DNA of 64,000 nucleotides from Fidelibacterota bacterium. GTDB lineage: Bacteria; Fidelibacterota; UBA8477; JABMPR01. Position 1 is the stretch's first letter; every line of letters begins with the position of its first letter. Shown here piece by piece: positions 19,134 through 57,682 of this stretch. A program made the position numbers and the translations under genes. The stretch spans positions 4,488 to 68,487 of the forward strand of contig JAJRSW010000053.1 of NCBI GenBank assembly GCA_024278595.1. The letters run 5' to 3'. Below the pieces are notes generated by a model that saw only the letters and a program-made list of their open reading frames with translations, searched no databases and had not been told where the DNA came from.

Positions 19134-19139
19134 TGAACA

Positions 19140-22703: not shown

Positions 22704-23069
22704 AATTCACCTGCTTTCTACCGTTATTTCATATAATGACAATTCCACCTCCATGTGGCTATAATTCCTGTATATTTTCCACTGTTACGATACTTCGCTG
22801 AACTCAGTGCGAGCAGTTGCTGAGCCCACCGAAGCAGGCTTTATATTTTAAGTTTGGCGACCTTGCAAAAGCATTTGGAAAAACACAGAATATACCCTAT
22901 AACCATTAAAAACCGCTACTTATGATATATACCTAAGACCTTAAATAGCAATATTGTGCGCCATTTCTACAAGCGGTTTCCGAGCTTGATAAATAATACG
23001 GAGTATGATATTAATGAACTTATATGCATTTGAGATGGATAGTTGTATTTGGTGGCGTCAGCGTCCATT

Positions 23070-30161: not shown

Positions 30162-30346
30162 ATTTCCTCATTTATCAGGGCCTCGTGGCCTACCTTTTTT
30201 TAACCGCAAAGAACGCGGAGGGCGCGAAGATAATTAATAAATGTTGACTTGTTATACCAATTACAGTCCTGCTAGCGTTTAAACAAGCTTTGCATTCCTG
30301 CGGTCTTTGCAAGTAAGAAAATAGTCAGCAATTTTTCAGCTTTGGT

Positions 30347-30378
30347 AGAAACAAAAGCGGCCGGTTCAAGACCAGCCT
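30347..30378 (-). terminator. rho-independent terminator after etfA
   Basis: Minus-strand GGCUGG-UCUUGAA-CCGGCC hairpin followed by GCUUUUGUUUC. Confidence 0.5.
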
Positions 30379-30406
30379 CTTTATCTGTTGGACAAGGATA
30401 GTACGA

Positions 30407-31375: not shown

Positions 31376-31384
31376 GATGACCTC

Positions 31385-32140
31385 CTAAAGGACCTGAGCT
31401 TCATCACGAAGCAGTTTGACCAGTTCTGCGGCAGCTTCCGGGCCTTCACCCACGATTCGCCCATCTGGTTTTTTGGGGGGATAGCTCATCTCCAGAATCT
31501 CGATCCCTTCCCCAGCCAGTGAAATCTCTTTGATCTCAAGCGGTTTGCGCTTGGCTTGCATGATACCCTTTAGTGCTGGGTAACGTGGCTCATTCAAGCC
31601 CTTTTCAGCCGTGATCACACATGGCGTTTGGGCGGTGATGGTCTCTTTACCACCTTCAATATCTCGAATGACAGTGGCAGTTCCATCAAGCAGCTCCAGG
31701 GATTTGGCTGTCGGCAGGACTGGCATCCCAAGGATCTCACCCAGTATAGTGGCCACCTGATGTCCATAGCCATCAATGGCCATCTTGCCTGCCAAGACCA
31801 GATCCGGCTCCAGTACCTTGATCTCTTCCGCCAAAGCTTTCGCCACGGAGAAGCCATCGGCTAATGCTGCGTTCTCAACTTTGAGCAAAACGCCACTATC
31901 GGCACCCATGGCCATGGCCGTCCGCATCACGGGCTGAGCTTCCTCGCCGCCTAATGTCAATACGATTATCTCACCCGCCCCGGCTGCTTCTTTGAGTTTC
32001 AAGGCTTCTTCTACGGCATACTCGTCATAGGGATTCATTACATACTTAACATCACCAGGATCGATGGATAGACCATCCCCTCCAATAACCACCTTTGTTT
32101 CAGTGTCAGGTACTTGCTTGACACACACGACAATCTTCAT
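31385..32140 (-). CDS. etfB: electron transfer flavoprotein beta subunit
   Basis: MKIVVCVKQVPDTETKV... EtfB N-terminal signature. Start set at the conserved MKIVVC Met. Confidence 0.9.
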   Translation of the reverse strand: MKIVVCVKQVPDTETKVVIGGDGLSIDPGDVKYVMNPYDEYAVEEALKLKEAAGAGEIIVLTLGGEEAQPVMRTAMAMGADSGVLLKVENAALADGFSVAKALAEEIKVLEPDLVLAGKMAIDGYGHQVATILGEILGMPVLPTAKSLELLDGTATVIRDIEGGKETITAQTPCVITAEKGLNEPRYPALKGIMQAKRKPLEIKEISLAGEGIEILEMSYPPKKPDGRIVGEGPEAAAELVKLLRDEAQVL

Positions 32141-32412
32141 TATGGGCTCCTTCTTCATTGATCAACTTCAGTTGGGCAAATTTCAGTCCACATTGCCCGG
32201 ATCGAGCGATGGTGAAGATATTTTTCCAGGCTCAATAAACAAAATATTTCAACATACCGACTGGTCGGTTTGTAATATATTTCCTGCAAATTGAAATTCA
32301 ATAGCTGCTTTTACTTTCAAGGCGTTTATCTCAATTAGTTCATTTATCAGACAAAGAAAATAGCCATCCTCGCTAGAATTATTAGTTTAAGTCCAATTCA
32401 AAAGGACCCACT

Positions 32413-35034
32413 ATGCTACTCAACAAAACCTTACCCGCTATTGTCACCCTGCTCCTCCTAACGAATTGTGATCAGAATTCTGATGGCTTTCGGGTCACAG
32501 CGAATCGAGTAGATGAGGCTCAGTTCAGTGCTGAAGCGCTAAGCCCAAGCACCTTGAGATCCAATTATCCCATGCTAGCTAATTCTTCCCTGCCCCAACC
32601 CATCATCTTCAAGCTCAGTTTGAATGGCCAGGACAATGAGGCTGGATTCGGTGTAGACCATCAGATCATTGTGCCCCGGGGTGTCAGTGAGTTTTATGCT
32701 CCATTGCTCAAATTTGGAGTTCATGCCCCGGTCTTCAGCAGTGAGACTCCACCACTCGAAGCAGCTGCAAATGTGCATTTCCGGGTGGATCTGCGACCCA
32801 TACTGGAAGCGTTGGCAGATCCGGGCTTTTATGTTAGCCCCACCAATGACACCATTTATGCTGATGCCTTTCAGGGACTTTATCTGCTTGGCGGTACGGC
32901 TCCTTTACGCTGGATCTGGGACGATCCACAGGCTCTGGCCAATACGCGCTTTGAGGATACTGATCAGGATTCCATCTATGAACTCAGCATCCGATTTGAG
33001 CCACCGCAGACCGAAGTGGGATATCGCTTCTGGCAACTGACTGAAGACTTGTCCGGTTTACCCCACTTTTCCAGCCCGCAAGCCCCACTACTGGAAGCGC
33101 TCACCAACCTGGCCCTGGAAGAGACCATCTTGAATATCCGGCAGGATAACGCTTTCTCGGCTGGCAAGGAATGGCCGGGTGTCTGGACACGGGACATCGC
33201 TTATGCAGCCCAACTCTCGCTGGCTTACCTCTTTCCAGAAAATGTCAAATCCAGTTTAAGGGCAAAACTGAGCCCTGAGGGCCGCATTATACAGGATACT
33301 GGAACCGGGGGCTCCTGGCCCGTTTCCAGTGATCGCCATCTATGGACCCTGGCGGCCTGGGAGGTTTTTCTGGCTACGGGTGACCAGTCCTGGCTGGCTG
33401 AAATCAGAGACCCGGTGATCAGGGCCTTAAAAGAAGATCTTTTGTGGAATCGTGATCCCATATCAGGGATGCTCCTTGGTGAAACCAGTTTTGAAGATTG
33501 GCGGGAACAAACCTACCCGAATTGGATGTCCCCCGCCGATATACATGCTTCGCAGGCCCTGTCTACCAATATCATCTTTAAACGCGCCCTGGAAATCGGA
33601 TTGGTCCTGGCCACCACCGACCGCGATATTCCCCGTTCCTGGCCAGCATTGATCACACGGCTTGATCAGAATATTCTCAACCATTTCTGGAGTGAATCAC
33701 TTAACGCTCCAGCTAGTTACATAATTTCAGGCCCGGCCTGGCTACCGGCCGCCCACCGTGACCTGTTGGGGGAATCCCTGGGCATCTTGCTGTGCCGTTC
33801 CTTTAAGCCAATTGCAGCCCAATTGGTGTCTTCCTACCCTCGCAGCCGGTATGGAAGCCCTGTGATATCTCATCAACTACCGCACTCCCCCCCGTATCAC
33901 AACCAGGCAATCTGGCCTTTTGTGGAGACCTATGCCCTGCTGGCTGCCAGGCAGGTTGGTAATCAGGCAGCTTACCGGCATAGTTTCCAGGGTCTCATCA
34001 GAGCAGCCGCCCTCTTTCTCACTCATCGCGAGAATTACCACTACTCGACTGGCCGGCCGGATCAAACAGAGATCAACTCTGATCGTCAGTTATGGAGTGA
34101 TGCCGCCTGGCTGGGCGCGATATACAAAGGCTTGTTCGGTTTATCCATCAATTACAATTTTGATCAGGGAAATTTTGAGCTGCTCCTGGACCCAAACAAT
34201 CCCTTCTCATGGGATCAATTTTCAATTACAGATCTATACTTGCATGATACCCCCATAAATATCACCCTGGAAGGTCTGGGGTCCCGAACATCATCCATAA
34301 GGGTAAATGGCACTGAACATGCGCTAGGTAAACCGATTCGGTTGAGGGGTGAAGCGCTGGATATAGTGCTCCAGTTAGCAGATCCAGAGGCTGGCGATTC
34401 AGCAACAGTTCAACTTGTTGAGCAGCTACTTCCAGATATACCAAGCACCTCGTGGTCAGGGGATACACTTAGCTGGACCAGCAGTTCCGGAACGAGTGTT
34501 TTAGAAGTAAATGGCCGGGTACTGGATACCCTGACCAGCTCTCCCAGTTTGCTGCCAGATAGCCTGGTGGGTTTCTATTCTCTGCGGGCTCTGGATTCAA
34601 CAATGACCCTTGGCCTGCCCAGTCGACCGCATTATAGAGGGCCTTCCGCCGCATTGGTTTTGACTAGCCAGGAGCCCTATTTCATTGAACTGGGGCAGGC
34701 AAGCACTTTTATAGAAATGAGCTTCTCGATCCCCTCGACTGGCAATTATCTCTTACGATTTATCTACAGCAATGGATCTGGCCCCATCAATACGGGGAGT
34801 ACCTGCGGGTTGGCTAAACTTAAGATCAATGACTGGTGGCTGGAACAGATGGTCAGTTTCCCCCATACAACCAGTTGGGGCAATTGGCAGCTGACTTCCT
34901 GGTATAAGGCACAATTTCAAGCGGGCCAAAATACCCTGATGTTGGATCAGGAAAGTTTACCCGTCAGCAATATGGACGGTAAGGTGAACCTGTTTCGGGT
35001 TCAGCGAATTGAGATCGTCCCAATCCCTGAATGA
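32413..35034 (+). CDS. secreted lipoprotein, six-hairpin (alpha/alpha)6 glycosidase-like (GH15/GH63-like) with possible C-terminal carbohydrate-binding module
   Basis: Lipoprotein signal (LLLLTNCDQ). A WTRD-containing segment (EWPGVWTRDIAYAAQLSL), reminiscent of the GH15 glucoamylase/glucodextranase catalytic barrel motif. C-terminal ~150 aa beta-sandwich-like. Confidence 0.4.
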   Translation: MLLNKTLPAIVTLLLLTNCDQNSDGFRVTANRVDEAQFSAEALSPSTLRSNYPMLANSSLPQPIIFKLSLNGQDNEAGFGVDHQIIVPRGVSEFYAPLLKFGVHAPVFSSETPPLEAAANVHFRVDLRPILEALADPGFYVSPTNDTIYADAFQGLYLLGGTAPLRWIWDDPQALANTRFEDTDQDSIYELSIRFEPPQTEVGYRFWQLTEDLSGLPHFSSPQAPLLEALTNLALEETILNIRQDNAFSAGKEWPGVWTRDIAYAAQLSLAYLFPENVKSSLRAKLSPEGRIIQDTGTGGSWPVSSDRHLWTLAAWEVFLATGDQSWLAEIRDPVIRALKEDLLWNRDPISGMLLGETSFEDWREQTYPNWMSPADIHASQALSTNIIFKRALEIGLVLATTDRDIPRSWPALITRLDQNILNHFWSESLNAPASYIISGPAWLPAAHRDLLGESLGILLCRSFKPIAAQLVSSYPRSRYGSPVISHQLPHSPPYHNQAIWPFVETYALLAARQVGNQAAYRHSFQGLIRAAALFLTHRENYHYSTGRPDQTEINSDRQLWSDAAWLGAIYKGLFGLSINYNFDQGNFELLLDPNNPFSWDQFSITDLYLHDTPINITLEGLGSRTSSIRVNGTEHALGKPIRLRGEALDIVLQLADPEAGDSATVQLVEQLLPDIPSTSWSGDTLSWTSSSGTSVLEVNGRVLDTLTSSPSLLPDSLVGFYSLRALDSTMTLGLPSRPHYRGPSAALVLTSQEPYFIELGQASTFIEMSFSIPSTGNYLLRFIYSNGSGPINTGSTCGLAKLKINDWWLEQMVSFPHTTSWGNWQLTSWYKAQFQAGQNTLMLDQESLPVSNMDGKVNLFRVQRIEIVPIPE

Positions 35035-35038
35035 CCGA

Positions 35039-35761
35039 TCATTCGGCCTCTTCTGCAGGTAGCAGATAGAGTGGAAAGATAGTTTCACCATAGGGTCCCA
35101 CGCCCTTGGCGAGAAACTGCTGGTATTTTTCCTCGGTATAGGGAGCGCCCGGTACTGGTGCAGCAATGGTATCACCAAAATAGTTTCTACTATAGGCTTT
35201 CACTGAACGTGGATCCCGGACTATCCTGACCCCGCGAACGCCGGCAATACTGGCCGCAACCATATCATTATCAGCATCGCCATAGAATATATGTAGCCCC
35301 AATTCTGAGATCACTTCATGCTTGGTGGTGTACTTCTTACCGGTTTTGGGGTCTTTCCTTTTTGTGGCAAAAAATAAATTTTGGTCTTTCTCAATAGGGA
35401 AGCCCAATTCTCTGGTTAAATATCGCCCAACCGCTTCACCATTGATACCTGGCCGGGCGGTAATAAAATAGACCTCATGTCCCTGGGATCTCAAAAACTC
35501 GATCAAGTCCGCAACTGGTTTGATGATCACAGAATGAAGACTGTCGTGTGTGTTTATCCAGCCAAAATCAATCTGGTCAGGATCATCACTCATCTGGGGG
35601 GCTATCAAAAAATTATCGCGGGAGAAAACGACCGTGTCATCGATATCGAAACCTACTTTTAATTGCCCAAGTATTCTTTCCGGTGTCGCAGGGGTCTTTA
35701 CCGGGTGACAGGCAGTTATAAAAAGGATCAGACTAAAGCTGAATAGCTGGATGGTTCGCAT
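35039..35761 (-). CDS. class B acid phosphatase / HAD subfamily IIIB lipoprotein (AphA/e(P4)-like)
   Basis: Signal peptide with Cys. DIDDTV motif I. ARPG.., GDADND motifs of HAD IIIB phosphatases. Confidence 0.6.
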   Translation of the reverse strand: MRTIQLFSFSLILFITACHPVKTPATPERILGQLKVGFDIDDTVVFSRDNFLIAPQMSDDPDQIDFGWINTHDSLHSVIIKPVADLIEFLRSQGHEVYFITARPGINGEAVGRYLTRELGFPIEKDQNLFFATKRKDPKTGKKYTTKHEVISELGLHIFYGDADNDMVAASIAGVRGVRIVRDPRSVKAYSRNYFGDTIAAPVPGAPYTEEKYQQFLAKGVGPYGETIFPLYLLPAEEAE

Positions 35762-35955
35762 TGTTACAAATTCCTTATTTCAATTTTCAATATTTATTCA
35801 ATTTGCCAGTTTGGCTTATTGCCAGCGGAAAGAACCGGCCAACCCAAACCACACCTCAGCGTATTTTTCTCCCAGGCAGTCCCCGCAAAACAAGAAGTCA
35901 AATCAGGCGGATAAAAATAGTAGCAAATTCAATAACAGGTACTCATTTTTAAAGC

Positions 35956-36492
35956 ATGATCACACTACCCATATCTACCACTGAAAAAAAACTGACCTAC
36001 CTTATCTCTGGTCGCTTCTCCCATGAACGGCTGGATGGCTTCATGATCATGGTATCCAACCCTTATCAATGGCTGTTGCCGACCTTGTTCTTTGCCATGA
36101 TCCTGATCTATGTGGATTGGAGATCTGGACTACAAGTGCTCCTGATGAGTGGCCTAAGTGCTGGTATCGCTGATAGTATCAATACGCGCTATATAAAAAT
36201 ACATACTGACCGGGTCAGACCGGGTAAACAATACCAGGACATCAGATCCCTGGGAGTAATGAACAAGGGGGATAAATCTTTCCCTTCCAACCACGCCTCC
36301 AACACCATGGCCTTTGCGTTGAGTTTTGGTTTGATTCTTCCCTGGACTATGTGGATCATGCTACCGCTTTCACTTTTAGTTGGATATTCCAGAGTTTATT
36401 GTGGCGCACACTTCCCCCTCGATGTATTAGCAGGCTGGCTGCATGGCGCCGGCTGGGTGCTTCTGATCAGTTTGCTCCTGGGGCTGTTATAA
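35956..36492 (+). CDS. PAP2-family phosphatase (phosphatidic acid phosphatase type 2 / undecaprenyl-diphosphatase-like)
   Basis: Three PAP2 motifs: KIHTDRVRPG, SFPSNHAS, SRVYCGAHFPLDVLAG. Multiple TM helices. Confidence 0.8.
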   Translation: MITLPISTTEKKLTYLISGRFSHERLDGFMIMVSNPYQWLLPTLFFAMILIYVDWRSGLQVLLMSGLSAGIADSINTRYIKIHTDRVRPGKQYQDIRSLGVMNKGDKSFPSNHASNTMAFALSFGLILPWTMWIMLPLSLLVGYSRVYCGAHFPLDVLAGWLHGAGWVLLISLLLGLL

Positions 36493-44300: not shown

Positions 44301-46007
44301 CTAATTCATCAATCGGATATCTTTTAGTTCCAGTTGAATAGTCTTACGTCCCTGCCACTCATTCTCAGCAAGTACGTAGGCCATTTCTAAAGGTTTATTT
44401 GCGTACAGGAGTTCAAGATCTTCTGCCATACCAAACCCGATGGCATCCAGAACGGTGCGTCCCTGGCGAACTTTTAATTTCAGGTGATTTTTGCCCACGA
44501 TCTTAGGACGTGGATAGCCGATCACCTCCAGGTTCTGGCTGGCAAACAACGGTCGCATATTGCCCGGTCCATAAGGAGCCAGGCGTCGCAGGGTTTCCAT
44601 TAGCTGTGAATTGACATCGGTAAATTCGATCACCGATTCGATCTTCAAACGCGGACTCATCATCTCCTCTGTGATCATTTCCATGGCCACTGCCTGAAAG
44701 CGCTGTTCGAAAGCCTCAAGATTGACGGGATCAATGGTCATGCCTGCTGCCATGGTATGGCCGCCGAAGGTCACTAACAGATCTGCACATTTTGAAAAAG
44801 CCGCGTGCAGGTCAAATCCGGTAATACTCCGGGCCGATGCTTTCCCCACGCCATGGTTCACGGCAATTACAACAGTGGGAACATGGTATCGTTCTTTTAA
44901 TTTCGAAGCCACAATACCGATCACGCCATGATGCCAGCCTTCTTTGTGTAATACGAGAGACCGTTTTTCGCGCGGATCGGATTGGGAGTTGGACTTGCGA
45001 ACGGCTTCATCAAATATCTTCGCTTCCACCATTTTTCGCGCTTCATTTTCAGAATTCAGAACAGCTGACAACTCGCGGGCTTTTGATGAAGTATCCGCCG
45101 TCATAAGATGGACAGCCCGCATGGCTTCACCCAGGCGACCAACAGCATTGATCCGTGGTCCCAGACCAAATAATACGTCAGATACCGTAACCTCATCGTG
45201 GGTGATCCCTGCGACCTTCTTCAGGGCTTTGATCCCCGGTCGTTTCCCCTGACTGATCAACTTGAGCCCTTCGCTGAGGATGATGCGGTTCTCTCCGGTG
45301 ACCATTACAATATCAGCAGCTGTGCCAATGGCAGCCAGATCTAGATTCTGATAGGCCTGTTCTGCTGCCAGGCCGCGACTTTTACTGATGGCCTGGGTCA
45401 GTTTAAAGGCGACCCCGACACCACATAGATGCTTGTTGGGGTATTCACAACCGGCCAGTTTGGGATTCAAAATAGCCACTGCGTCCGGTAGTTGATCATC
45501 AGGTATGTGATGATCGGTGATTATCATTTTGATCCCTTTTCCATGGGCATATTCAGTCTGCTCAACTGCTGTGATACCACAATCACAGGTGATGATCAAT
45601 TGGGCACCAATCTCAGCTGCATAATCGATCCCCTGGTGTGACACGCCATAGCCTTCATTGATCCGGTCCGGGATATAATATTCTGATTTCGCTCCAATTG
45701 ACTGGAGAAAAAGATGCAATAGCGCAGCTGCTGTTGTGCCATCTACATCATAATCCCCAAAAATCAGGATGGGTTGGTGCTCATCCAGACACCTGGAGAC
45801 CTCGGCTACTGCCGTTTCCATATTAAGCATTAGAAAGGGATCCAGCAAATGAGAGATGGACGGGTTAAAAAACTCCCGGGCCGCATCCATCGATCGTAGC
45901 TCCCGGCGCCAAAGAATGCCTGATACGACAGGAGAAACACCTAGAGCAGCAGCCAGAGTATCAATTTCTGCTTGGGGACTATCTTGAATGATCCATATTT
46001 TTTCCAT
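44301..46007 (-). CDS. recJ: single-stranded-DNA-specific exonuclease RecJ
   Basis: DHH motifs (IFGDYDVDGTTAAALL, ITDHH), a DHHA1 domain (GGHTMAAG) and a C-terminal OB-fold region. 568 aa. Confidence 0.9.
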   Translation of the reverse strand: MEKIWIIQDSPQAEIDTLAAALGVSPVVSGILWRRELRSMDAAREFFNPSISHLLDPFLMLNMETAVAEVSRCLDEHQPILIFGDYDVDGTTAAALLHLFLQSIGAKSEYYIPDRINEGYGVSHQGIDYAAEIGAQLIITCDCGITAVEQTEYAHGKGIKMIITDHHIPDDQLPDAVAILNPKLAGCEYPNKHLCGVGVAFKLTQAISKSRGLAAEQAYQNLDLAAIGTAADIVMVTGENRIILSEGLKLISQGKRPGIKALKKVAGITHDEVTVSDVLFGLGPRINAVGRLGEAMRAVHLMTADTSSKARELSAVLNSENEARKMVEAKIFDEAVRKSNSQSDPREKRSLVLHKEGWHHGVIGIVASKLKERYHVPTVVIAVNHGVGKASARSITGFDLHAAFSKCADLLVTFGGHTMAAGMTIDPVNLEAFEQRFQAVAMEMITEEMMSPRLKIESVIEFTDVNSQLMETLRRLAPYGPGNMRPLFASQNLEVIGYPRPKIVGKNHLKLKVRQGRTVLDAIGFGMAEDLELLYANKPLEMAYVLAENEWQGRKTIQLELKDIRLMN

Positions 46008-46549
46008 AATTAATCAGTCCATAGTATAAACTTCTTCTCGGTTTTATTCACAGGAAAAACAAATTCATTTTTCTTTTTACAACAAAACATTACCGTTATT
46101 TGCGAAACAGGCCTGATATCAGAGCTAACCCGCTTATTTCATGAGGGTGAGCAAAAGCAAACATAAGATGTCATTTACAGTATAATGCAAAGTTTTTCTT
46201 AAAATACACTTTGTACACAGGTGTTTCTTACTGAGGAGTTTTGAATTTTACCAAGGCGGAAAGATGAACCTCCCTTCGACAGGCTCTGGGACCACCCGCA
46301 GACGGCCCCGTAGGACCGTTGAGGACAGATTTAGCTTTCCGACGCAGGTAGAATTTAAAAAAACCAGTAAGATTGCATTCCTTCATGAAATATGCGGGCC
46401 AAGCCCCTGCTGGTCAGAATCTCTAGAGTGCACCACTCACTGAAAATTCTGGTTGGTAAGTTGGTTTCTGTAAGCTTCCGGGGAAGATTATTGATCGGGT
46501 GCTTTTTTCACCAGTTCCCTTGTAAAAAAAACACGTCTGATTCGTAATA

Positions 46550-46945
46550 AATAGGTGGATCTGTAAGCCGGATTCTGTCTTATCCTCTATGAGCATGAGG
46601 CAGCCATTGATCTGGATCCCGGTTTGCACCGTGATACAAGCTTCCCACCCGAAGAGTATCATCCAGGATGATCTGGCGGACCACCAATCTCTTCTGCTTG
46701 GAATTGCTCCGGTTGGGGTTTTCCCACATGGTCAATTACTTGACCACGGCGTGAGCTCTTACCTCACGATTTCACCCTTACTCATCAACGTCCAGTTGTA
46801 TTAGGCGTAGATGAGCGGTATCTTTTCTGTGGCACTTTCCATCCCCACCAGTTGGTGGGGTCCCATGCTGCGAACATGGGCAACCCGTCCTGCGGAGTCC
46901 GGACTTTCCTCCCGGCAAAAGCCAGGCGACTGCCCGATCCACCCA
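46550..46945 (-). ncRNA. rnpB: RNase P RNA, bacterial type A
   Basis: Minus-strand transcript with a P1 stem GGUGGAUC/GAUCCACC and P4 strands GGGAGGAAAGUCCGGACUCC and ACAGAAUCCGGCUUACAG. A short P3 hairpin CCUGGCUUUUGCCGGG. The P10-P12 region GGGUGAAAUCGUGAGGUAAGAGCUCACG and the P15-like AAACCCCAACCGGAGCAA match the E. coli M1 RNA consensus. Confidence 0.88.
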
Positions 46946-47239
46946 TATTTTAAAAAACGATTAGAAAGTAATGTAATTGTAGCGGTCTAAAAGAAAAATG
47001 ACCTCCAAAAGCAGATCATTTTTTAATTAAATATTCTCTAACCTGAATAATTCATAGCCACTAAGTCACGAAGGTCCAAAGTTTTAATAAATATATGCTT
47101 AGCAAAAATTATCATTCACAGATGCAAATAATTCTGTTTAAAATGACCTTGCTCATAACTTTAATAATCTTCGTAACTTAGTGTTTTCGTGGCAATAATT
47201 CATGAATAATGCAGGCTAAAAAGATGGGTGAGAAACTAG

Positions 47240-47953
47240 CTAATCACCATCCTTGGGAATATGAACCAGAATACGGCCACAGTTCTCACATTCAATAAGT
47301 GAATCCATTTGCTGAATTTCATAGACGACCTGGGGCGAAAGTTGTTTATGACAGCCCACACAAGCCGAACGTTCAATCGCAACAACAGCCCGGCGACGAG
47401 CTTTCAGGATCCGATCATATTTGCGTAGATAACGTTGACCGATATTTTTTGTCAGTTCTTCGCGTTGAAGTTCCAATTCTTTCTGTCGGACATCTGTAAG
47501 ATCAGATTTTTCTTTCAATTCGTCACGATTGGCTTCCAACTGGGCCAAAAAATCGGTGCTTTGTTGTTCGGAAGAGGCCATCGTACCTTCAAGTTCTTCG
47601 ATCTCAGTTTCCAGAACCAGTTGTCTTGCTTCCATCTCGACCATCCCGGACTTGACGGTTTCAATCTCATTGGTCAGTGCATCATATTCACGATTGGTCG
47701 TAACAAGATAGAGTTGATCCTGGTACTTTTTAACTTTCTCAGCTGCATCCATGAGGGTACCATTGATGCCAAGCAGCTCTTTCTGATTTTTATCCAGGGT
47801 TAACTGAGTATTTCTTAGGTCAGATTTGATGGATTCAGCCTGAGATTCCAGTTTCTCAACTTGTTCAGGAAGACTCCCTTTTTTCTCATCAATTTCAAAA
47901 AGCTGACGATCAATTTCCTGGAGATCAATCAGAGACTTCAATACATTTTTCAT
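47240..47953 (-). CDS. COG1579/DUF164 zinc-ribbon coiled-coil protein
   Basis: Long coiled coil followed by a C4 zinc ribbon CVGCHKQLSPQ...CENCGRIL. This family is frequently encoded immediately upstream of rnpB. Confidence 0.75.
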   Translation of the reverse strand: MKNVLKSLIDLQEIDRQLFEIDEKKGSLPEQVEKLESQAESIKSDLRNTQLTLDKNQKELLGINGTLMDAAEKVKKYQDQLYLVTTNREYDALTNEIETVKSGMVEMEARQLVLETEIEELEGTMASSEQQSTDFLAQLEANRDELKEKSDLTDVRQKELELQREELTKNIGQRYLRKYDRILKARRRAVVAIERSACVGCHKQLSPQVVYEIQQMDSLIECENCGRILVHIPKDGD

Positions 47954-48250
47954 TCACACCTATCTCTCTGGATATATCATACGAAAAGTGCACCATTTGG
48001 TGCACCAATTATTTTAATTCGAAGTGGCTCAGGAATTTGCTGTTTCAAGTGGAACGTTTGCTTTATTTCTCGCCTAATCACGTCACGCAATATACATAGC
48101 AACCTACCTGCCACAAGTGGCTATAATATGTTTTTACTGTTTTTTTACAAACGTCAGAACAGTGGTTCCCAACCTATACTGCAAGCTCTACTCCCGCGCC
48201 AACAGGAAGCCTGTCAGCACCAATCTCATGTAATAATAGTAGGGTTTTGC

Positions 48251-49576
48251 TTAGCTGATCAGGATTCTCTCAGCAAGCCAGGCCTGAAGGTCTGCTACAG
48301 GCACTCTTATCTGCTCCATGGAATCGCGATGGCGCACAGTCACAGCCTGATCCTCCAAGGTATCGAAATCAATGGTCACGCAATAGGGCGTACCAGCTTC
48401 ATCCATGCGACGATAACGACGTCCAATGGCTCCTTTTTCATCATAAAATACATTAAAATGGCGTTTTAATTGTTCCTTTAGATCCGTAGCATATTCCTTG
48501 AGACCCCCTTTCTTTACCAGGGGCAGGATTGCTACCTTGATGGGCGCAACCCGGGGATGAAAATGCATAACGGTGCGAACCGAGCCATCTTCCAGCGTTT
48601 CTTCTTCATAAGCTTCGCAGAGGATCGCCAGAGTTGTTCGGTCACAACCGGCTGAGGTCTCAATAATGAATGGTGTATACTTCTCATTTGTATGTGGGTC
48701 TCGATACCCCATACTTTTCCCGGAAAACTTTTCATGCTGGCGCAAGTCAAAATCAGAACGATTGTGGATACCTTCCAACTCATTCCAGCCAATGGGAAAT
48801 TTGTATTCAATATCAAAAGCGGCTCGGGCATAATGGGCCAGTTCATCGGGTCCATGTTCTTCGAATCGTAAGTTTTCCCGGCTGATCCCAATGGTGTCAT
48901 AGAAGGCCATTCGACGTTCTTTCCAGGTTTCGAACCACGCATCAGATTCATCTGGTTTGACAAAGAACTGCATCTCCATCTGCTCGAACTCACGGGTCCG
49001 AAAAATAAAGTTGCCGGGGGTGATCTCGTTTCTGAAAGCCTTGCCGATCTGCGCTATTCCAAAAGGAATCTGTTGGCGGGAAGTATCGACCACATTGGGG
49101 AAATTAACAAAAATTCCCTGGGCTGTTTCTGGTCTGAGATAAATGTCAGATGCCGTACCCTCAACAGCGCCCATTTGGGTTTTGAACATGAGATTGAATT
49201 GACGGGAATCAGTCAGCTCTCCACCACATTCCGGACATGCATGTGATCGCAGGGTTTCCTCAGAAAGTGTATCTTCCCGGAACCGGGTCTTACAAGCCTT
49301 GCAATCTACCAGCGGATCGGTAAAGCCCCCGACGTGACCACTGGCCTCCCAGACCTTCGGATGCATGAGAATGGCTGCATCCAGTCCCACAATATTATCA
49401 TGCTCACGGGTCATGGCATGCCACCACATCTGTTTGACATTGAGTTTTAGCTCAACGCCCAGTGGACCATAATCGTAGCAGGCATTGATACCGCCATATA
49501 TCTCACTTGACTGAAAGATAAAACCCCGGCGTTTTGCCAGAGAGACCAGTTTGTCAAAGCTTTCTAATCGTGCCAT
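48251..49576 (-). CDS. glyQS: glycine--tRNA ligase, alpha2 homodimeric type
   Basis: N-terminus [29 protein letters not shown] and class II aaRS motifs. An insertion with a Cys cluster. 441 aa. Confidence 0.9.
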
Positions 49577-49598
49577 TTCATTCTCTCAATTCTGGTAT

Positions 49599-51263
49599 TT
49601 ATTCAGATTCAATATCACTGACATTGATCTCGTGCTTACATTTTGGACACAAGGCGTAGTCGCCCTTCTTCTTGGTGGATTTTGCCACCATATAAGGGTT
49701 TTCACACGCTGGACATTTGTGGGCGATTGGTGGGTCCCAGCTAACAAAATCACAATCCGGATATTTGGTACAGCCATAAAAAGTCCGCCCCCGTTTTGAG
49801 CGTCGTGGAGATATCTCTCCCTTGCAATCCGGCTTTGGGCAGGGCATTAAGATGGTAAAGGGTTTGGTGAATTTGCACTTTGGATACGCTGAACACGCAT
49901 AAAACTTTCCGTAGCGACCATCTCTCAGGATCAGCGGTGATTCACACTTCTCACATTTTCCATAATCCTTGGCTTCCTCCCCATCACCTTCTGTTCCAGA
50001 CTTAGGACCATCCAGGGGTCGGGCATTACGACAGCTTGGAAAACCGGAGCAAGCCAGAAATTGTCCATTCTTACTCCATTTGACTACCATTGGTTTTCCA
50101 CATTTTTCACACAGCTCCCCACTATCCTGTTGCAAGGACTGCTTTATTTCGCTATACGATTTGGAAGAAGCTTCCAGCCATTTTTCCAACAGCGCCCAGA
50201 ATTCCTGCATGATATCGAGATAAGTGAGCTGGCCTTCTTCTACCTTATCCAGACGACTTTCCATCTCACGGGTAAATGTTTTATTTACCAGCTCGGAAAA
50301 GTTGTCAACCAGTAACTTGTTGGTCACCTTACCCAGTTCTGTGGGGAACAGTTTACGCTTCTCAGAGCGTACATAATTTCTGGCCTGAACCACCGAGATA
50401 ATATTTGCATAGGTAGACGGACGACCAATACCTTCCTTATCAAGCACCTTGACCAGACTGCTTTCGGTATAGGGTGCCGGGGGTTTGGTGAAATGCTGAT
50501 CCGCATCCACCTGGAGCAATCCTAAAATGTCACCTGCTTTCAGATCTGCCGGGAGATGACTCTCTTTCTCTTCCTCTTTTTCAAAATAAACTTTACGATA
50601 GCCATCGAAGACCAGATCTGAACCAGCGGCTCTTAATCCAAATCGCTTCCCGGCCTGGATCTCGATGGAGGATTGGTCAAATACGGCCACAGCCATTTGG
50701 GAAGCAGTGAAGCGTCTCCAAATCAGATCATATAGTTTTGCCTGGGGGCTGGTCAGGGATGCTTTGACCAGATCAGGATGGAGCGCCGGATTGGCCGGTC
50801 TGATGGCTTCATGGGCATCCTGGGTCTTAGCCGCCTTACTTTTTCCAAACGGGCGCCCTTTGGCAGGCAGATACTTCGAACCGAGGGTCTCCTTTACATG
50901 AGTCCTGATGGTCTCAATTGCCGAGCTGGCGACCCGGGTTGAATCGGTTCGCATGTAGGTAATTAACCCGGTGGTCTCACCATCCTGCAAGGTTACGCCT
51001 TCGTAGAGTTGTTGCGCCAGGGTCATGGTCCGCTTAGTGGTAAATCCTAATTTTTGAAAAGCAGCCTGCTGCAAGGTACTGGTGGTAAATGGGGCGTGAG
51101 GATTACGACGGACTCGTTTCTTCTCAACTGAGCTGATAGTGAAAGTTTCCTCCTTCAGCTCATGGCGCAGGTCCATAGCGATGGTCTCATTAGGTATGTA
51201 AGCCTTTTTTCCATCAACTTTTTGAAGTTCGGCCTCAAAGCCATGCTTCTTTTCAGTTTCCAC
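49599..51263 (-). CDS. topA: DNA topoisomerase I, C-terminal ~555 codons (same frame as the N-terminal fragment, separated by an in-frame TAA)
   Basis: Topo IA domains II-IV and three C4 zinc ribbons (CEKCGKPM..C..C, CEKCESPL.., CPKPDC..). Its N-terminal extension reads IDRFEPQEYWTIKTEV upstream of the annotated start and continues the TopA alignment. Confidence 0.85.
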   Translation of the reverse strand: METEKKHGFEAELQKVDGKKAYIPNETIAMDLRHELKEETFTISSVEKKRVRRNPHAPFTTSTLQQAAFQKLGFTTKRTMTLAQQLYEGVTLQDGETTGLITYMRTDSTRVASSAIETIRTHVKETLGSKYLPAKGRPFGKSKAAKTQDAHEAIRPANPALHPDLVKASLTSPQAKLYDLIWRRFTASQMAVAVFDQSSIEIQAGKRFGLRAAGSDLVFDGYRKVYFEKEEEKESHLPADLKAGDILGLLQVDADQHFTKPPAPYTESSLVKVLDKEGIGRPSTYANIISVVQARNYVRSEKRKLFPTELGKVTNKLLVDNFSELVNKTFTREMESRLDKVEEGQLTYLDIMQEFWALLEKWLEASSKSYSEIKQSLQQDSGELCEKCGKPMVVKWSKNGQFLACSGFPSCRNARPLDGPKSGTEGDGEEAKDYGKCEKCESPLILRDGRYGKFYACSAYPKCKFTKPFTILMPCPKPDCKGEISPRRSKRGRTFYGCTKYPDCDFVSWDPPIAHKCPACENPYMVAKSTKKKGDYALCPKCKHEINVSDIESE

Positions 51264-51308
51264 CTCAGTTTTGATGGTCCAGTATTCCTGAGGCTCAAAT
51301 CTGTCGAT

Positions 51309-51875
51309 TTATTCCTGACGTTCGCAGATCAAACGCAGGGCCACAGACTGGACCCGTCCAGCGCTTAAGCCTGAGTATAAAACTCTCCACAGGAAAGGAC
51401 TCACTTTGAAACCTACCAGGCGGTCAATGATGCGCCGGGCCTGTTGAGCATTTACCAGATTCATGTCCAGGTCGGTGGCATTACGCATGCCTTCCAGAAC
51501 GCCTTCTTTGGTGATCTCATAAAACATGACCCGATGGATCGGTTTGTTTAAATTTTTCAAAATGCGGGTCACATGCCAGCCAATGGCCTCACCTTCGCGG
51601 TCAGGGTCAGTTGCCACAAATACCTGACTTGCTTTTCGGGCAGCTTCCTTCAGGGCATCAACATTTTTCTTTTTACCCGGTATGATCACATATAGGGGTT
51701 TAAAATCAGCTTTAAGATCTACACCCAATTGGGTTCGGGGTAGATCCCGGATATGACCAACGGTAGATAGGACCTGATATTCATCCCCCAAATATTTACG
51801 GATAGTACTGGCTTTGGAGGGTGATTCGACGATGACTAGATTTTGTGACATGGGCTTCCTTTGGGCTTCAATCAT
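51309..51875 (-). CDS. topA: DNA topoisomerase I, N-terminal Toprim fragment (terminated by in-frame TAA at 51306-51308)
   Basis: MSQNLVIVESPSKASTIRKYLG..VGHIRDLP Toprim domain. It ends ..GRVQSVALRLICERQE-stop exactly where intact TopA continues (E. coli VVEREREIKAF). Confidence 0.85.
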   Translation of the reverse strand: MIEAQRKPMSQNLVIVESPSKASTIRKYLGDEYQVLSTVGHIRDLPRTQLGVDLKADFKPLYVIIPGKKKNVDALKEAARKASQVFVATDPDREGEAIGWHVTRILKNLNKPIHRVMFYEITKEGVLEGMRNATDLDMNLVNAQQARRIIDRLVGFKVSPFLWRVLYSGLSAGRVQSVALRLICERQE

Positions 51876-52362
51876 TTTAACTCACAGATAATATTCCGCG
51901 ACTCAAGTAAAAGCAATACCTGGTATACCTGCTTTTTAGCATGCATTATTTGCTACAGACCCAGACTTTTGGGCATCCCTGGAGCTGATGTTGCCGTTCC
52001 ACCACAAATCCCCGGAGATCGTTTGATGAGCACTTCCTTACCCATCTTGAAGCACACCCCTGTATTAGTTTTTTGACTTTACCAGGTGCTCCTCCCCGAG
52101 TATTTATGTCATATTCAGCTCTAAAGTAGCTGTCAAATCCAAAATATTTTTCTGGTTTGCAAATCCCGACCGAAACCATCCCGCCTCAGAAACCCTGAGT
52201 ATTTGGCCTTGGGATGACCTGAAAATGGAAAAGATGCAGCAGTTAGGTGCCAGTTAGAAGTGTAATTGGTATTTCACATTTTCTTAGCACAAACCAGCCC
52301 GCTCCCCCGGGAACTGTTTTTACGGTTTAGTCTGAATCTTGATCGTCACTCACCACGCTAAT

Positions 52363-53382
52363 TTACGAGTCAGAATAACCCTGGGGATTGTTTGACTGCC
52401 AACGCCAGGCATCCTCACACATCTCTGCAATGCCTCGGGTGGCTTTCCACCCGAATACTTCAGCGGCTTTTTGGGTAGCAGCGTAACATTGAGCGATGTC
52501 ACCATCGCGGCGACCCACAATCTGATAAGTGACTTTTTTACCGGATGCCAGCTCAAAGGCTTTAACCAGTTCCAGGACACTATATCCTGAACCGGTACCT
52601 AGATTCACTGTCACCAAACCAGGACTGGTTGATAAATGTTCCAGAGCTCTGATATGACCCAGTGCCAGATCCACCACGTGGATATAATCCCGAACGCCGG
52701 TTCCATCCGGAGTCTGATAATCATCACCAAATATTGAAAGCTGTTTGAGTTTGCCAACCGCTACTTGAGAGATATAGGGCATGAGATTATTGGGGATCCC
52801 ATTGGGGTCTTCACCAATCCGGCCGCTCTTATGAGCACCCACCGGGTTGAAATACCGTAAAATCGCAATGTCCCAACCGGCATCAGAAACATACAGATCG
52901 CGGAGCATCTCTTCGATGATCAGTTTGGAGCGTCCATAGGGATTGGTGGCAGATATGGGGAAATCTTCAGTGATGGGCACTGAAGCCGGATCACCATAGA
53001 CAGTCGCAGAGGAAGAGAATACCAGCCGTTTTACCTCATTACTCTGCATCACTTCCAGGAGGTTAAGTGTTCCGGTCAAGTTATTCTGATAATAATTAAG
53101 CGGCATGGTCATTGATTCCCCTACCGCTTTAAGACCGGCAAAATGGACCACCGCATCAATTTCATGTAGCTCAAATACTCGATCCAACTCTGGCTTGTTC
53201 AATAGATCAAGCTCATGGAAGCTCACCGATTTTCCAGTAAGCTCTTCAACACGTTTTAATGACTCACGGCTACTGTTGGAGAGGTTGTCTACCACCACTA
53301 CCTGATTACCATTCTCCAATAATTCCAGCGAAGTGTGACTTCCGATATAACCAGCACCACCGGTAACTAGGATATTTGACAT
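52363..53382 (-). CDS. galE: UDP-glucose 4-epimerase
   Basis: [17 protein letters not shown] Rossmann motif. Catalytic YxxxK region. About 340 aa. Start set at the conserved MSNILVTGG rather than the upstream in-frame Met. Confidence 0.9.
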
Positions 53383-53665
53383 AAATCTTCTTTCTTGATT
53401 AAGCCTTGATGGATGATATAAAAGCCAAAGTTCGTCCGCCCGAGCGGAGTCCAAGGCTCTACAAAGCTTAGTTGGTTCAATTCAAAGCTGGTATTCACAC
53501 ATGTATTCTCATATTCAGTCGCATATCAACAATCCACCTCTCGACTGCGCTTCAGTCTTCGCTCTCCGAGCTATGCCCGACAGGCGGGGTGACGAGAAAT
53601 GTGCCCGGTTTCCAGATTCCAAACCGTTATCACTTATTTTTGAAAGCTCCGGACGCACAAATGTT

Positions 53666-54865
53666 TCAACGATAGGCTGGGATGCCCGTAATACTTTCAC
53701 CGACAACCAGCGTGTGCATTTCATGAGTACCCTCATAAGTTAAAACTGATTCCAGATTCGCGGCATGCCGCATGGCAACATATTCATCAGTTATGCCGCT
53801 GGCACCCAGTATGGTCCTGGCCGATCGGGCGATCTCAATGGCCATCCGAACATTATTCATCTTGGAAAGACTGACTTGGTTGTGATTCAAGGTCTCACGG
53901 TCTTTTAGACGGCCTAATTGCAAGGTCATTAATTGGGCTTTGGTGATCTCATTCAGCATTTCAGCCAGTTTTTGCTGGGTTAATTGAAAGGCTGCGATGG
54001 GTTTATCAAACTGAATTCTGGTTTTTGCATATTCAACGGCTTCTTCATAACAGTCCATGGCGGCTCCCATAACCCCCCAATTAATACCATATCGAGCCTG
54101 GGTAAGACAGCTTAATGGGGCTCGTAGTCCCTTGGCATTCGGGAGTCGGTTCTCCTGAGGTATCCGGCAGTTATTAAGTATGATCTCACCTGTGATGGAG
54201 GCTCGGAGTGAAAGTTTCCCCTTGATCTCAGGGGTTTCAAAACCGGCTGTGTTACGCTCGACCAGAAAGCCCTGGACCTCACTTGATTCAACCTTGGCCC
54301 AGATCACAGCCAGGTCAGCGACTGGCGAATTGGTGATCCACATTTTAGTACCGTTCAATATGTAACTGTCACCATCCCGGATGGCTCGGGTAAGCATGCC
54401 GCCCGGATTTGACCCAAAGTCCGGTTCAGTCAGACCAAAACAGCCAATTTTGTCACCTGAGGCAAGCAATGGCAGCCATTGGTCCCGCTGCTCTTTTGAG
54501 CCATATTTCCAGATCGGCCACATAACCAGGGCCCCCTGGACCGATGCAAAACTACGCAAGCCCGAGTCCCCCCGCTCCAACTCCTGCAGCATAAGACCAT
54601 AGGCTACATTATTCAGACCGGCTACCCCATATTCTTCGGGAAGATTAGAGCCAAAGAAGCCCATTTCACCCATTTCGGTTCTGAGATCCATGGGAAAGGT
54701 TCCCTGACGAAAATATTCAGCAATCCCGGGGCGAAATTTATTTTTCACCCATGCATGGGTCATATTCTGAACAGCTATCTCTTCATCACTCAGCAGACTT
54801 GAGAGATCAAAAAAATCAGGTCCAATAATTTTAGCAGGCATGGTGCGCTCCCTTTTCGGCTCCAA
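53666..54865 (-). CDS. gcdH: glutaryl-CoA dehydrogenase
   Basis: Near-colinear similarity to GCDH: GCFGLTEPDFGSNPGGMLTRA, NGTKMWITNSPVADLAVIWAK, YEGTHEMHTLVVGESITGIPAY. Confidence 0.85.
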   Translation of the reverse strand: MEPKRERTMPAKIIGPDFFDLSSLLSDEEIAVQNMTHAWVKNKFRPGIAEYFRQGTFPMDLRTEMGEMGFFGSNLPEEYGVAGLNNVAYGLMLQELERGDSGLRSFASVQGALVMWPIWKYGSKEQRDQWLPLLASGDKIGCFGLTEPDFGSNPGGMLTRAIRDGDSYILNGTKMWITNSPVADLAVIWAKVESSEVQGFLVERNTAGFETPEIKGKLSLRASITGEIILNNCRIPQENRLPNAKGLRAPLSCLTQARYGINWGVMGAAMDCYEEAVEYAKTRIQFDKPIAAFQLTQQKLAEMLNEITKAQLMTLQLGRLKDRETLNHNQVSLSKMNNVRMAIEIARSARTILGASGITDEYVAMRHAANLESVLTYEGTHEMHTLVVGESITGIPAYR

Positions 54866-55000
54866 AGGTAAACGCTGGCTATATCAGCGAAACAAAAATG
54901 ATTAGGTGAAACCAGTTTAGTCACTGCCCCGCAGTTCTGGAAACTGGTTGAGATTGATTTTAATCATTTCGCATTTGCAAAAATGGCATAATATCACCCC

Positions 55001-55726
55001 ATGCAAAACGAGCCAATTTTTAAATTCACAGATGTCTCTTATGTGGTTGGTGGAAGTAAAATCCTCCAGGGAATAAATTTTGTGGTCCACAAGGGTGAGT
55101 TTTTGGCTGTGCTGGGGGCCTCTGGTGCCGGAAAAAGCACCCTGCTTAGAATGTTCAATGCCTTACAGAGCCCCAATAGTGGGCAGATCAATTTTCGAGG
55201 ACAGGCTATTGATACGGATATTCCCTGTCTGCGCAAAAATGTCGGCATCCTGTTCCAGAATTCGGTGGTCTTCAGTGGTAAGGTTAAAGACAATCTGTTG
55301 GCAGCCGGTCGCTGGGATCAAAATATCGCACAGACCCTGGATCATGAGCTCATCTCCGCTCTGGAGCAGGTTGAACTGGGAAACATTGAGCTAAGCCATA
55401 ACGCGCAGGATCTTTCAGGAGGTGAGCAACAGCGCTTGGCTCTTGCTCGCACGCTACTGAATCATCCCCAGGTGCTGCTTTTGGATGAGCCAACCTCCAA
55501 TCTTGATCCAAAACTCGCGCGCTCAATTATGGATCTGGTAAACAAATTGCGCGAAACTTTGCATTTAACAGTGATCGCTGTATCGCATGACCATCTGCTC
55601 ATGCGCCGGTATGCCCAACGTGTGATGGTATTATCTCAGGGACAGAAGATCGGTGAGGGAACCTTTAAAGCGTTGGATCAGAAACAGGTCTTTGAGGAAG
55701 CTGGTTTAATGGAAGATTCGGACTAG
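55001..55726 (+). CDS. ABC transporter ATP-binding protein (FetA/YbbL-like)
   Basis: Walker A GASGAGKSTLL, signature LSGGEQQRLALAR, Walker B LLLDEPTSNLD. 241 aa. Coupled to a UPF0014-type permease. Confidence 0.8.
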   Translation: MQNEPIFKFTDVSYVVGGSKILQGINFVVHKGEFLAVLGASGAGKSTLLRMFNALQSPNSGQINFRGQAIDTDIPCLRKNVGILFQNSVVFSGKVKDNLLAAGRWDQNIAQTLDHELISALEQVELGNIELSHNAQDLSGGEQQRLALARTLLNHPQVLLLDEPTSNLDPKLARSIMDLVNKLRETLHLTVIAVSHDHLLMRRYAQRVMVLSQGQKIGEGTFKALDQKQVFEEAGLMEDSD

Positions 55727-55727
55727 C

Positions 55728-56528
55728 ATGAATTCTGATTTCTATATCCTGACCTGGAACGATCTCATCGTTTCCCTGGTATTCATTGCCTTCTCGCTAT
55801 TCCTGATTAAAAAGTGGAAATTGGGACTGGAACAAACCCTGATCATCGGCACGTTCCGTTCCTTTTTACAATTGACGCTTATGGGCTATGTGCTAACCTG
55901 GTTTTTCGACCAGCAGCATTGGGCTTTCATGCTGGGGCTACTCTTTATCATGATCCTCATCGCCAGTTATGAAGGGACCAGGCGCCAAAAGAACGAAATA
56001 CCTCATTTTTTCTCAGCCATGTTCATCGCCTTATTTGGCTCAGCGATCCTTATTCTGGGGACCATCCTGCTCTTTATTCTGGAAGTCGAACCCTGGTATT
56101 CACCTTATGCAGCAATACCGATCGGTGGAATGATCATCGGCAATGGCTTGAATTCAACCTCACTCACGGCAAACCGGTTTATCGGCGAGTTGAAGCATCG
56201 TGAGCGGGAGATCGAGACGCTCTTAGCCCTGGGAGCGACACCCAAATTAGCAGCCTACGATGCCATGAAGGCTTCCATCCAGGCAGCGCTCATACCCAAT
56301 ATTAATGGGATGATGACGGTGGGTCTGGTCCAGCTTCCCGGAGTTATGACGGGGCAGATCCTGGCCGGTATCGATCCGGTGATCGCCGTCCGTTATCAGA
56401 TCATGATCATGTATATGTGGTTTACCACAGCAACGCTGGCCAACATGATCATGCTGGCCATTGTATACCGTCAATTCTTTACGAATAAAATGCAGCTCAG
56501 ACGTGAGCTGCTCAGGGACAATTCTTAG
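55728..56528 (+). CDS. ABC exporter permease, UPF0014/FetB (YbbM)-like
   Basis: About 7 TM helices. Starts 2 nt after the ATPase gene. Size and TM pattern of FetB-family iron-export permeases. Confidence 0.55.
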   Translation: MNSDFYILTWNDLIVSLVFIAFSLFLIKKWKLGLEQTLIIGTFRSFLQLTLMGYVLTWFFDQQHWAFMLGLLFIMILIASYEGTRRQKNEIPHFFSAMFIALFGSAILILGTILLFILEVEPWYSPYAAIPIGGMIIGNGLNSTSLTANRFIGELKHREREIETLLALGATPKLAAYDAMKASIQAALIPNINGMMTVGLVQLPGVMTGQILAGIDPVIAVRYQIMIMYMWFTTATLANMIMLAIVYRQFFTNKMQLRRELLRDNS

Positions 56529-56755
56529 ACTAACCCTTCAGCTCCCAGAAATTTATCAGTTTCAGCTACGTGTTTTTTAAAGTCTTCCCAGAGTGCAGGA
56601 GCTACAGTAATGCCCTTCTGAGTTGGACGCCATTCATCCTCATCTGCCAGATAATGAATGCGAAAATCCACATAGGTCCGGCCTTTGAACTCCTTCACCT
56701 GAATAATTATTTTTTCTGTTTCGCTTCGTTCTACTTCACCAATGATCTTTTCCAT
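56525..56755 (-). CDS. PC4/YdbC-like ssDNA-binding protein (transcriptional coactivator p15 fold)
   Basis: IQVKEFKGRTYVDFRIHYLADEDEWRPTQKGITVAPALWEDFKKHV matches the PC4 beta-beta-beta-beta-alpha core (..kg..yvdiR.y..dg...ptkKGisl....w..l). Confidence 0.5.
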   Translation of the reverse strand: MEKIIGEVERSETEKIIIQVKEFKGRTYVDFRIHYLADEDEWRPTQKGITVAPALWEDFKKHVAETDKFLGAEGLV

Positions 56756-56898
56756 TTTATCTTTCCTTTTCTATTTGTCTTTCTGAGGGGACCGAAGAAT
56801 CTTTACCCCTGTTTTCTGAAAATAATTTTAGCCTGTTCTGGCGATCCTTCGTTTCACTCAGGAAGACTAACTGAGTAATTATTGTATAAAAATTTCAC

Positions 56899-57264
56899 TT
56901 ACTTCACCCACTTATCATCAAACTCATCAGCCTGGAACCCAAAAGAACCGGTTTCACCTTTTATAATAAAAGGTCGTTTGATCAGGTTGGGGTCCTGGAG
57001 CATCAATTCAATTGCTCTGGCTTTATCCGGGATATTTTGGCCCAATTTTAACTCCCGGTAAATGGCGCTGCGTGAATTCAGATATGGCTTAATATTATCA
57101 GCATCCATAAATTTCTCAAGCTGATCCCGGCTGGGCGGCCTGTTGATGATGTCGACTATTTCAAAATCAACTTTATGCTCATTCAAGTAAATCTGCGCTT
57201 TTTTGCAGGTTCCGCAGGTCTTTTTATCAAAAAATACTGGCTGCATCTTTTTATCCTTTATCAA
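56899..57264 (-). CDS. ArsC/Spx-family thioredoxin-fold protein (YffB-like)
   Basis: N-terminal CGTC(K) motif in MQPVFFDKKTCGTCKKAQIYLNEH and an ArsC-family fold signature. 121 aa. Confidence 0.7.
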   Translation of the reverse strand: MIKDKKMQPVFFDKKTCGTCKKAQIYLNEHKVDFEIVDIINRPPSRDQLEKFMDADNIKPYLNSRSAIYRELKLGQNIPDKARAIELMLQDPNLIKRPFIIKGETGSFGFQADEFDDKWVK

Positions 57265-57406
57265 ACAAATTTAACGACAGATCTTCGCAAATGCTCAGAA
57301 GAAGTACCCCGATTCTGAGATTGCCGCGTCCCATGGGCTCGCGAGACGATCATATAAATTTTTCTTTCAAACTACAACCTTAAATAATTTCAGCCAGGTC
57401 CGATTC

Positions 57407-57682
57407 CTAATACCGAATTTCGAATCCATGGTAATCCCCACTGTATTTCTGAGCATGTTCTTCCAGGCCGTCCACACTTGACCAGCGATTCCCTGTTTTT
57501 AGCAGTTTGATGAATTCGATCAACAAACCATGATCACCTTCAGCCAATCCGACAACCGACCCATCCGGGTTATTTTTGACCCAGCCGGAGAGCCCTAACT
57601 GCCGGCCGGCGCTTTGGACAAAAGCTCTGAATCCAACACCTTGGACGCGTCCGGTAACTCGAAATACGATAGCGGTATCCAT
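57407..57682 (-). CDS. acyP: acylphosphatase
   Basis: VTGRVQGVGFRAFV and GWVKNNPDGSV signatures. 91 aa. Confidence 0.85.
   Translation of the reverse strand: MDTAIVFRVTGRVQGVGFRAFVQSAGRQLGLSGWVKNNPDGSVVGLAEGDHGLLIEFIKLLKTGNRWSSVDGLEEHAQKYSGDYHGFEIRY

Follow-up and report, generated by a model that had tools for sequence, protein, structure and literature searches.

Is the stop codon inside topA part of the working gene, a recent mutation, or a base that the assembly has wrong? The gene lies in the window, which is the whole 64 kb stretch of DNA analysed here, from contig JAJRSW010000053.1 of the Fidelibacterota assembly GCA_024278595.1. It encodes DNA topoisomerase I (TopA) on the minus strand. 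The sequence reads one in-frame TAA at 51311..51309, which breaks the 750-codon gene. We consider it probable that this TAA is non-functional noise and not the organism's working topA state. It would mean either that the consensus is in error or that the assembler captured an allele that is minor or transient. Our verdict from the sequence is that the stop is a private nonsense substitution, very recent or artefactual, in a topA that is otherwise intact and strongly constrained. We infer either an incorrect base or one that has not reached fixation in the population. The stop is a single deterministic feature, and chance statistics are inapplicable to it.

The minus-strand text at the stop is ...CGT CAG GAA TAA ATC GAC AGA TTT GAG CCT CAG GAA TAC TGG.... 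Read in one frame, 51875..49599 yields 758 codons, only one of which is an internal stop (...RLICERQE*IDRFEPQEYWTIK...). An earlier note on this DNA, made from the sequence alone, had placed the two topA pieces in the same minus-strand frame, and the translation confirms it. The range that it gave for the stop (51263-51311) does contain the codon. The positions that it gave for inspecting read pile-ups (51306-51308) are three bases off.

The list of open reading frames (ORFs) cuts topA into 51309..51875 (188 amino acids [aa]) and 49599..51263 (554 aa, with a GTG start). The gene most likely starts at ATG 51851 and not at 51875, because all orthologues begin MSQNLVIVES or MSQYLVIVES. TopA homology picks up at the codon directly after the stop (51308), ahead of GTG 51263. 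That GTG, given as the start of the "large fragment," is just the first start codon that a mechanical listing meets. The upstream piece matches Pfam Toprim (8.8e-24) and Topoisom_bac profile positions 2-55 of 411. The downstream piece matches Topoisom_bac positions 58-410 (5e-96) and three Zn_ribbon_Top1 domains. The stop therefore falls in the interior of a single domain model, not where two domains meet.

The catalytic-Tyr motif and the acidic Toprim residues are in place. E9 and the DxD acidic cluster of the Toprim domain (D82-x-D84) stand in invariant columns and are kept in the window TopA. Y299 and the GLITYMRTDS motif of the Topoisom_bac active site are likewise invariant and present. 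What the gene lacks is an uninterrupted reading frame. With the stop read as X, the joined protein has up to 90% identity over 100% of its length to intact orthologues of 749-753 aa. These are type I DNA topoisomerases of Candidatus Marinimicrobia/Neomarinimicrobiota (SAR406). The joined protein also matches the solved TopA structures, with phmmer E-values of 1e-105 to 1e-146. The order of Toprim, Topoisom_bac, and C4 zinc ribbons is the same as in the enzymes of Escherichia coli (PDB 1MW8/4RUL) and Thermotoga maritima (2GAI), as are the catalytic-Tyr motif and the acidic Toprim residues. The difference is the TAA at the E. coli E210 site, which is found in the window gene and in no other recorded orthologue. 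By homology, the gene appears to be a normal single-polypeptide bacterial topA of Marinimicrobia/SAR406, one base off its ancestral state.

The ancestral codon can be read from the relatives. Residue-by-residue alignment places the stop at E210 of E. coli TopA (...VVERERE-IKAF...). This column holds E in 29 of 31 aligned orthologues and A in the other 2, with no stop. Among 15 related Marinimicrobia loci, 14 have GAA or GAG as the homologous codon and the remaining one has GCG; a stop occurs in none. One G-to-T transversion from GAA is therefore enough to give TAA. The change is from GAA (Glu181; E. coli E210) to TAA, by one base, in an otherwise normal topA. The earlier note had put the stop where intact enzymes have Glu or Arg (E. 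coli VVEREREIKAF) and had explained it by a single GAA-to-TAA change. Both claims agree with these alignments. They also supply the comparison with orthologous topA genes that the note had called for.

The nonsense change is private to one assembly. In a collection of 15 billion proteins, the 180-aa and 554-aa fragments each occur on one contig only. It is 77,622 bp long and also carries the other proteins of the window, which makes it the source contig. In the ten nearest protein clusters, all other members are full length (748-753 aa), and none turned out to be partial or interrupted. A contig index that omits the source contig gave no exact match to the 188-, 180-, and 554-aa fragments, galE, or nth. 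A scan of GTDB genomes found no genome of the same species, and the top match had 90% aa identity. A metagenome scan with the universal motif LITYMRTD returned mainly distant TopA genes among the matches listed and is therefore uninformative about contigs of the same strain. A homologue search with a 205-aa query around the stop returned just short, distant partial proteins with at most 58% identity. An exact pattern with NNN at the codon had 0 matches in viral contigs. A one-base change in a single assembly alone therefore points to an ordinary sequencing artefact or a recent mutation and not to new decoding. In their survey of prokaryotic in-frame stops, Belinky et al. (2021; PMC7918605) name sequencing error as one of four sources and accept only stops common to at least two genomes, so as to exclude error. 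The window stop is a singleton and therefore fails that criterion.

The rest of the gene is under ordinary constraint. Apart from the stop, the window TopA departs with just 1 private substitution from the columns that 30 orthologues otherwise keep invariant. The 30 intact orthologues carry 0-5 such changes each in 29 cases; the thirtieth, which is also the most divergent, carries 28. The lone substitution is K to Q. It is also present in a sister metagenome-assembled genome (MAG), GCA_021648165.1, because only one other site differs in the part of topA that the sister covers. With a single private change, any inactivation is therefore extremely recent or not real. An established pseudogene would carry several lesions or relaxed constraint, and this gene has one lesion. 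The description of topA as essential is an assumption carried over from other bacteria. No second type IA topoisomerase is encoded within the 64 kb window.

The codon is not reassigned, since TAA is in normal terminator use. It closes more ORFs in the window than any other stop codon (19 of 47, six times as TAAA), topA itself among them. When all six frames were scanned for long open segments joined by a single stop, ten further pairs came up in the window. Half of these are separate neighbouring genes by domain content or synteny. They are ETF beta/alpha, a sensor kinase and a response-regulator-GGDEF gene, TPR-YaiO and the unknown gene downstream of it, CorC/MazG, and two unknown genes joined at 62399. 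No known gene is visibly cut by a stop among the ten pairs, five of which were not inspected singly (three of these lie inside or opposite larger ORFs). The earlier note had proposed checking for other genes with an in-frame TAA, and within the window no conserved gene with one was found.

The surroundings of the stop do not resemble a recoding site. A stop conserved for programmed readthrough or recoding is absent from the relatives (0/31 orthologues, 0/15 related loci). The 151 nucleotides (nt) around the stop fold better than shuffled sequences (z = -2.9, the lowest in topA). Orthologous segments in 14 relatives have z from -2.2 to +1.3. The structure signal is not conserved, and therefore no conserved structure backs a stimulator. 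RNA structure as a readthrough stimulator was ruled out for this reason, and no conserved stimulatory context for recoding was found. Readthrough was one of three causes that the earlier note left open. The evidence argues against it as a designed feature. The stretch 51190..51425 on the minus strand is the most structure-prone part of the topA mRNA; three overlapping 151-nt windows there have z of -2.2, -3.1, and -2.3, and the others range from +1.7 to -1.9.

The G-to-T change also makes a direct repeat, CAGGAATA, with one copy at the stop and the other 30 nt further downstream, so that GAA and the stop are followed by a matching GAA. Phage T4 gene 60, which encodes a topoisomerase subunit, has a codon-stop pair with the identical codon tens of nucleotides downstream, and the stretch skipped by bypass is non-coding. 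The window topA is also a topoisomerase gene and has a similar codon geometry. In contrast, the stretch that would be skipped in topA codes for conserved protein sequence in every relative, so that bypass would damage TopA. A gene-60-like bypass and a mutation templated from the repeat were both rejected, since the CAGGAA repeat simply encodes Q-E...Q-E in every relative. The repeat does not count as evidence of its own, because a G-to-T change brings its eighth and ninth matching bases with it. The window encodes a single tRNA, tRNA-Val. On these grounds the stop is not a decoding feature; the gene is a known one, and the nonsense codon in it is ordinary.

A natural split of the gene would show a start of its own for the second piece, a tolerated boundary, and the same break in relatives. 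None of these was found. The list of in-frame starts holds no ATG, GTG, or TTG within 15 codons past the stop and none overlapping it. Reinitiation at GTG 51263 would lose the invariant residues I182, F185, E189, Y190, and W191. PMC4117796, citing Krah et al. (1996), describes a natural case, the reverse gyrase of Methanopyrus kandleri, in which the type IA domain is split between RgyB and RgyA. The type IA fold is in two pieces in both systems. The M. kandleri enzyme has two genes with their own starts and is an established active heterodimer, whereas the window topA has no start after the break, which hits invariant residues and is absent from relatives.

The sister MAG belongs to the same population and matches the window on both sides of the stop at about 99.9% identity (Table 1, which gives the identity of each stretch). 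One sister contig stops within topA at 50270. Another departs from the window path at about 52404, in the last galE codons. The interval that holds the stop (50271..52403) is therefore uncovered by the sister. Past galE, the sister goes into cdd, hemerythrin, and an oxidoreductase gene, not into topA (sister contig L165, 5254..7828). Past an 873-aa gene, where it breaks from the window at 32249, it goes into TetR, acyl-CoA dehydrogenase, thiolase, and FadB genes, not into ETF beta/alpha (L167, 4114..11323). These two departures in gene order are either population structural variation or chimeric sister contigs. At the galE junction the relatives back the window's gene order. A chimeric window at the galE/topA junction was considered and rejected, since the galE C terminus and the galE-topA adjacency match the relatives and the sister contig departs from them. 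We found no paper that mentions the sister assembly accession.

Over 14.8 kb, leaving the breakpoints aside, 13 sites distinguish the window from the sister, with 11 transversions and 2 transitions. One of these differences is a premature TAA in the sister (L165 position 576, window 57074). It changes TCA to TAA at Ser58 of a 115-aa ArsC/glutaredoxin-like gene, at a residue invariant in 12 relatives. The gene is intact in the window. The 11:2 excess of transversions, unaccompanied by indels, is an unnatural spectrum and suggests substitution errors that would lie mostly in the sister. The sister's own TCA-to-TAA change shows that doubtful nonsense codons of the substitution type do occur in data from this population.

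Several observations weigh against noise as the source of the topA stop. There are 0 indels between window and sister over the 14.8 kb. The window has the ancestral residue, and the sister the odd one, at 4 of the 5 polarisable non-synonymous differences. At the fifth, an I/L difference in galE, the window has the rarer residue. The rate of private changes in the window is ordinary, at 4.2 per 1000 columns in 12 conserved proteins (0.2-24 in relatives). From these comparisons the window assembly looks the cleaner of the two. An error-rich window assembly was considered and is unsupported. The contig is clean and 77.6 kb long, which suggests decent coverage, where random consensus substitutions are rare. 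Real gene decay is also found next door to topA, in the remains of an ArsP_2-type permease gene. Overall, the assembly comparison cuts both ways: such artefacts are plausible, yet there is no sign of an error-rich window.

The permease gene is intact in two relatives (L001 and L003), where it lies between galE and topA and encodes 343-346 aa. In the window, the gap between galE and topA (51876..52362) is about 490 nt, and about 700 nt of the permease gene is missing. A weak tblastn match to its first residues begins exactly 175 nt from the start of topA, with the same spacing as in the two relatives. It is probably the relic of the permease gene's 5' end after a deletion.

A real and very recent loss of function in the dominant genotype would also give this sequence. 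The organism would then survive through reduced gyrase activity or through another type IA enzyme. E. coli topA null mutants are viable with compensatory gyrase mutations, which counts for such a loss. The apparent accuracy of the window assembly and the structural heterogeneity of the sister MAG on both sides (contig end at 50270, divergence at 52404) speak for it too, and the genuine loss of the adjacent permease gene in this lineage lends it some colour. We regard it as a serious but rather unlikely explanation. The 2.25 kb gene has no second lesion and no relaxed constraint, topA is lost or interrupted in none of more than 30 relatives, and the window offers no second type IA enzyme to take over. 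A nonsense allele in a normally indispensable single-copy gene would be unlikely to reach the majority.

It is improbable that the stop is real and the gene works in spite of it, either as a two-piece enzyme (Toprim plus a reinitiated catalytic piece) or through low-level near-cognate readthrough of UAA-A. The full conservation of sequence on both sides of the stop and the local folding signal are consistent with such a gene. So is the M. kandleri reverse gyrase, which is active with its type IA domain split between two polypeptides (PMC4117796). The break falls inside one domain model, the split is found in no relative, the nearest start costs five invariant residues, and the folding signal is not conserved. 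Both release factors recognise UAA, which leaks less than the other stop codons. Readthrough has been proposed for in-frame stops of constrained bacterial genes (PMC7918605); those cases likewise have an in-frame stop with constrained flanks, but the window stop is TAA and not the leaky TGA. More specifically, it is very unlikely that a free-living SAR406 lineage has the nonsense codon as the majority allele of its only topoisomerase I gene and lives on a two-piece TopA made by non-canonical reinitiation or on trace UAA readthrough. Designed decoding of the TAA, whether by a reassigned code, a suppressor tRNA, or a programmed bypass from GAA to the GAA 30 nt downstream in the style of T4 gene 60, is hardly credible. 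The repeat does supply the geometry of a take-off codon, a stop, and a matching landing codon. The bypass would remove ten codons conserved in all relatives, including those for invariant I182 and F185, and the CAGGAA repeat pre-exists in relatives as protein-coding sequence. TAA is the commonest genuine terminator in the window, none was seen in frame in its other genes, and its one tRNA is tRNA-Val.

The meaning of the stop depends on which of these explanations holds. An error would make the stop a quality flag for a single MAG, since a pipeline would miscall topA as a pseudogene and underestimate completeness. A real stop would catch a deleterious allele at one moment in the history of a streamlined marine bacterium. 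The stop would bear on the tolerance of type IA topoisomerases to splitting only if it were both fixed and functional. A two-piece TopA as the majority allele, if true, would give bacteria their own equivalent of the split M. kandleri reverse gyrase.

The neighbourhood of topA is conserved. Synteny with relatives extends for about 17 kb on both sides and covers about 20 neighbouring genes of the same or nearly the same length. The conserved order is PolX, Nth, acylphosphatase, PC4, UPF0014, ABC, acyl-CoA dehydrogenase, GalE, topA, GlyRS, Zn_ribbon_9, RNase P RNA, RecJ, FabH, acyl-CoA dehydrogenase, 7TM-HD, YbeY, and CorC. One stretch is 85-89% conserved at the nucleotide level, compared with about 80% in flanking coding DNA, because the RNase P RNA is encoded there.

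Table 1. Coordinates of topA, its surroundings, and other features of the window
Feature	Position	Strand	Description
Internal TAA	51309..51311	-	Next base A; codon 181 of topA from ATG 51851; ancestral GAA (Glu)
topA 5' part	51312..51851	-	180 codons; Toprim and first ~55 positions of Topoisom_bac; alternative upstream ATG at 51875
topA 3' part	49599..51308	-	569 codons and own TAA terminator (49601..49599); remaining Topoisom_bac, GLITYMRTDS catalytic-Tyr motif, C4 zinc ribbons
First canonical in-frame start past the stop	51263..51265	-	GTG, 16 codons downstream of the stop
ArsP_2 permease 5' relic (probable)	52026..52103	+	Weak tblastn match to first 27 residues, contains a stop; MSTSLPILKHT... 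to MNTLLPVLKHA...
RNase P RNA	46548..46945	-	Class A, bacterial (245 bits); between recJ and the Zn_ribbon_9 gene
Sister MAG match	44823..50270		99.89%
Sister MAG match	52397..57649		99.89%
Sister MAG match	32249..36361		99.93%
Left-end genes	247..8164		SSB-like DUF669, Sak4-like AAA_24 annealing protein, PD-(D/E)XK exonuclease, M78 metalloprotease/regulator, DUF2924, large serine integrase
Large serine integrase	6250..7815		PHROG integrase, 3e-123
tRNA-Val	11296..11372		
Signalling/envelope cluster	11966..23842	-	Hpt, response regulator, 1187-aa PAS/GAF hybrid histidine kinase, response-regulator-GGDEF, receiver, HEAT-repeat, family-2 glycosyltransferase, TPR-YaiO outer-membrane barrel, unknown 396-aa protein

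The window contains other features away from topA. Its left end (247..8164) is a prophage-like or integrative element. Near-identical serine integrases are present in five other assemblies. The signalling/envelope cluster looks like a locus for exopolysaccharide controlled by cyclic di-GMP, judging from its gene content. The region 30000..34000 has a G+C content of 0.50-0.515, compared with 0.41-0.45 across much of the window. It spans ETF alpha/beta and the start of the 873-aa protein, which has no Pfam match, and the break in synteny with the sister at 32249 lies inside it.

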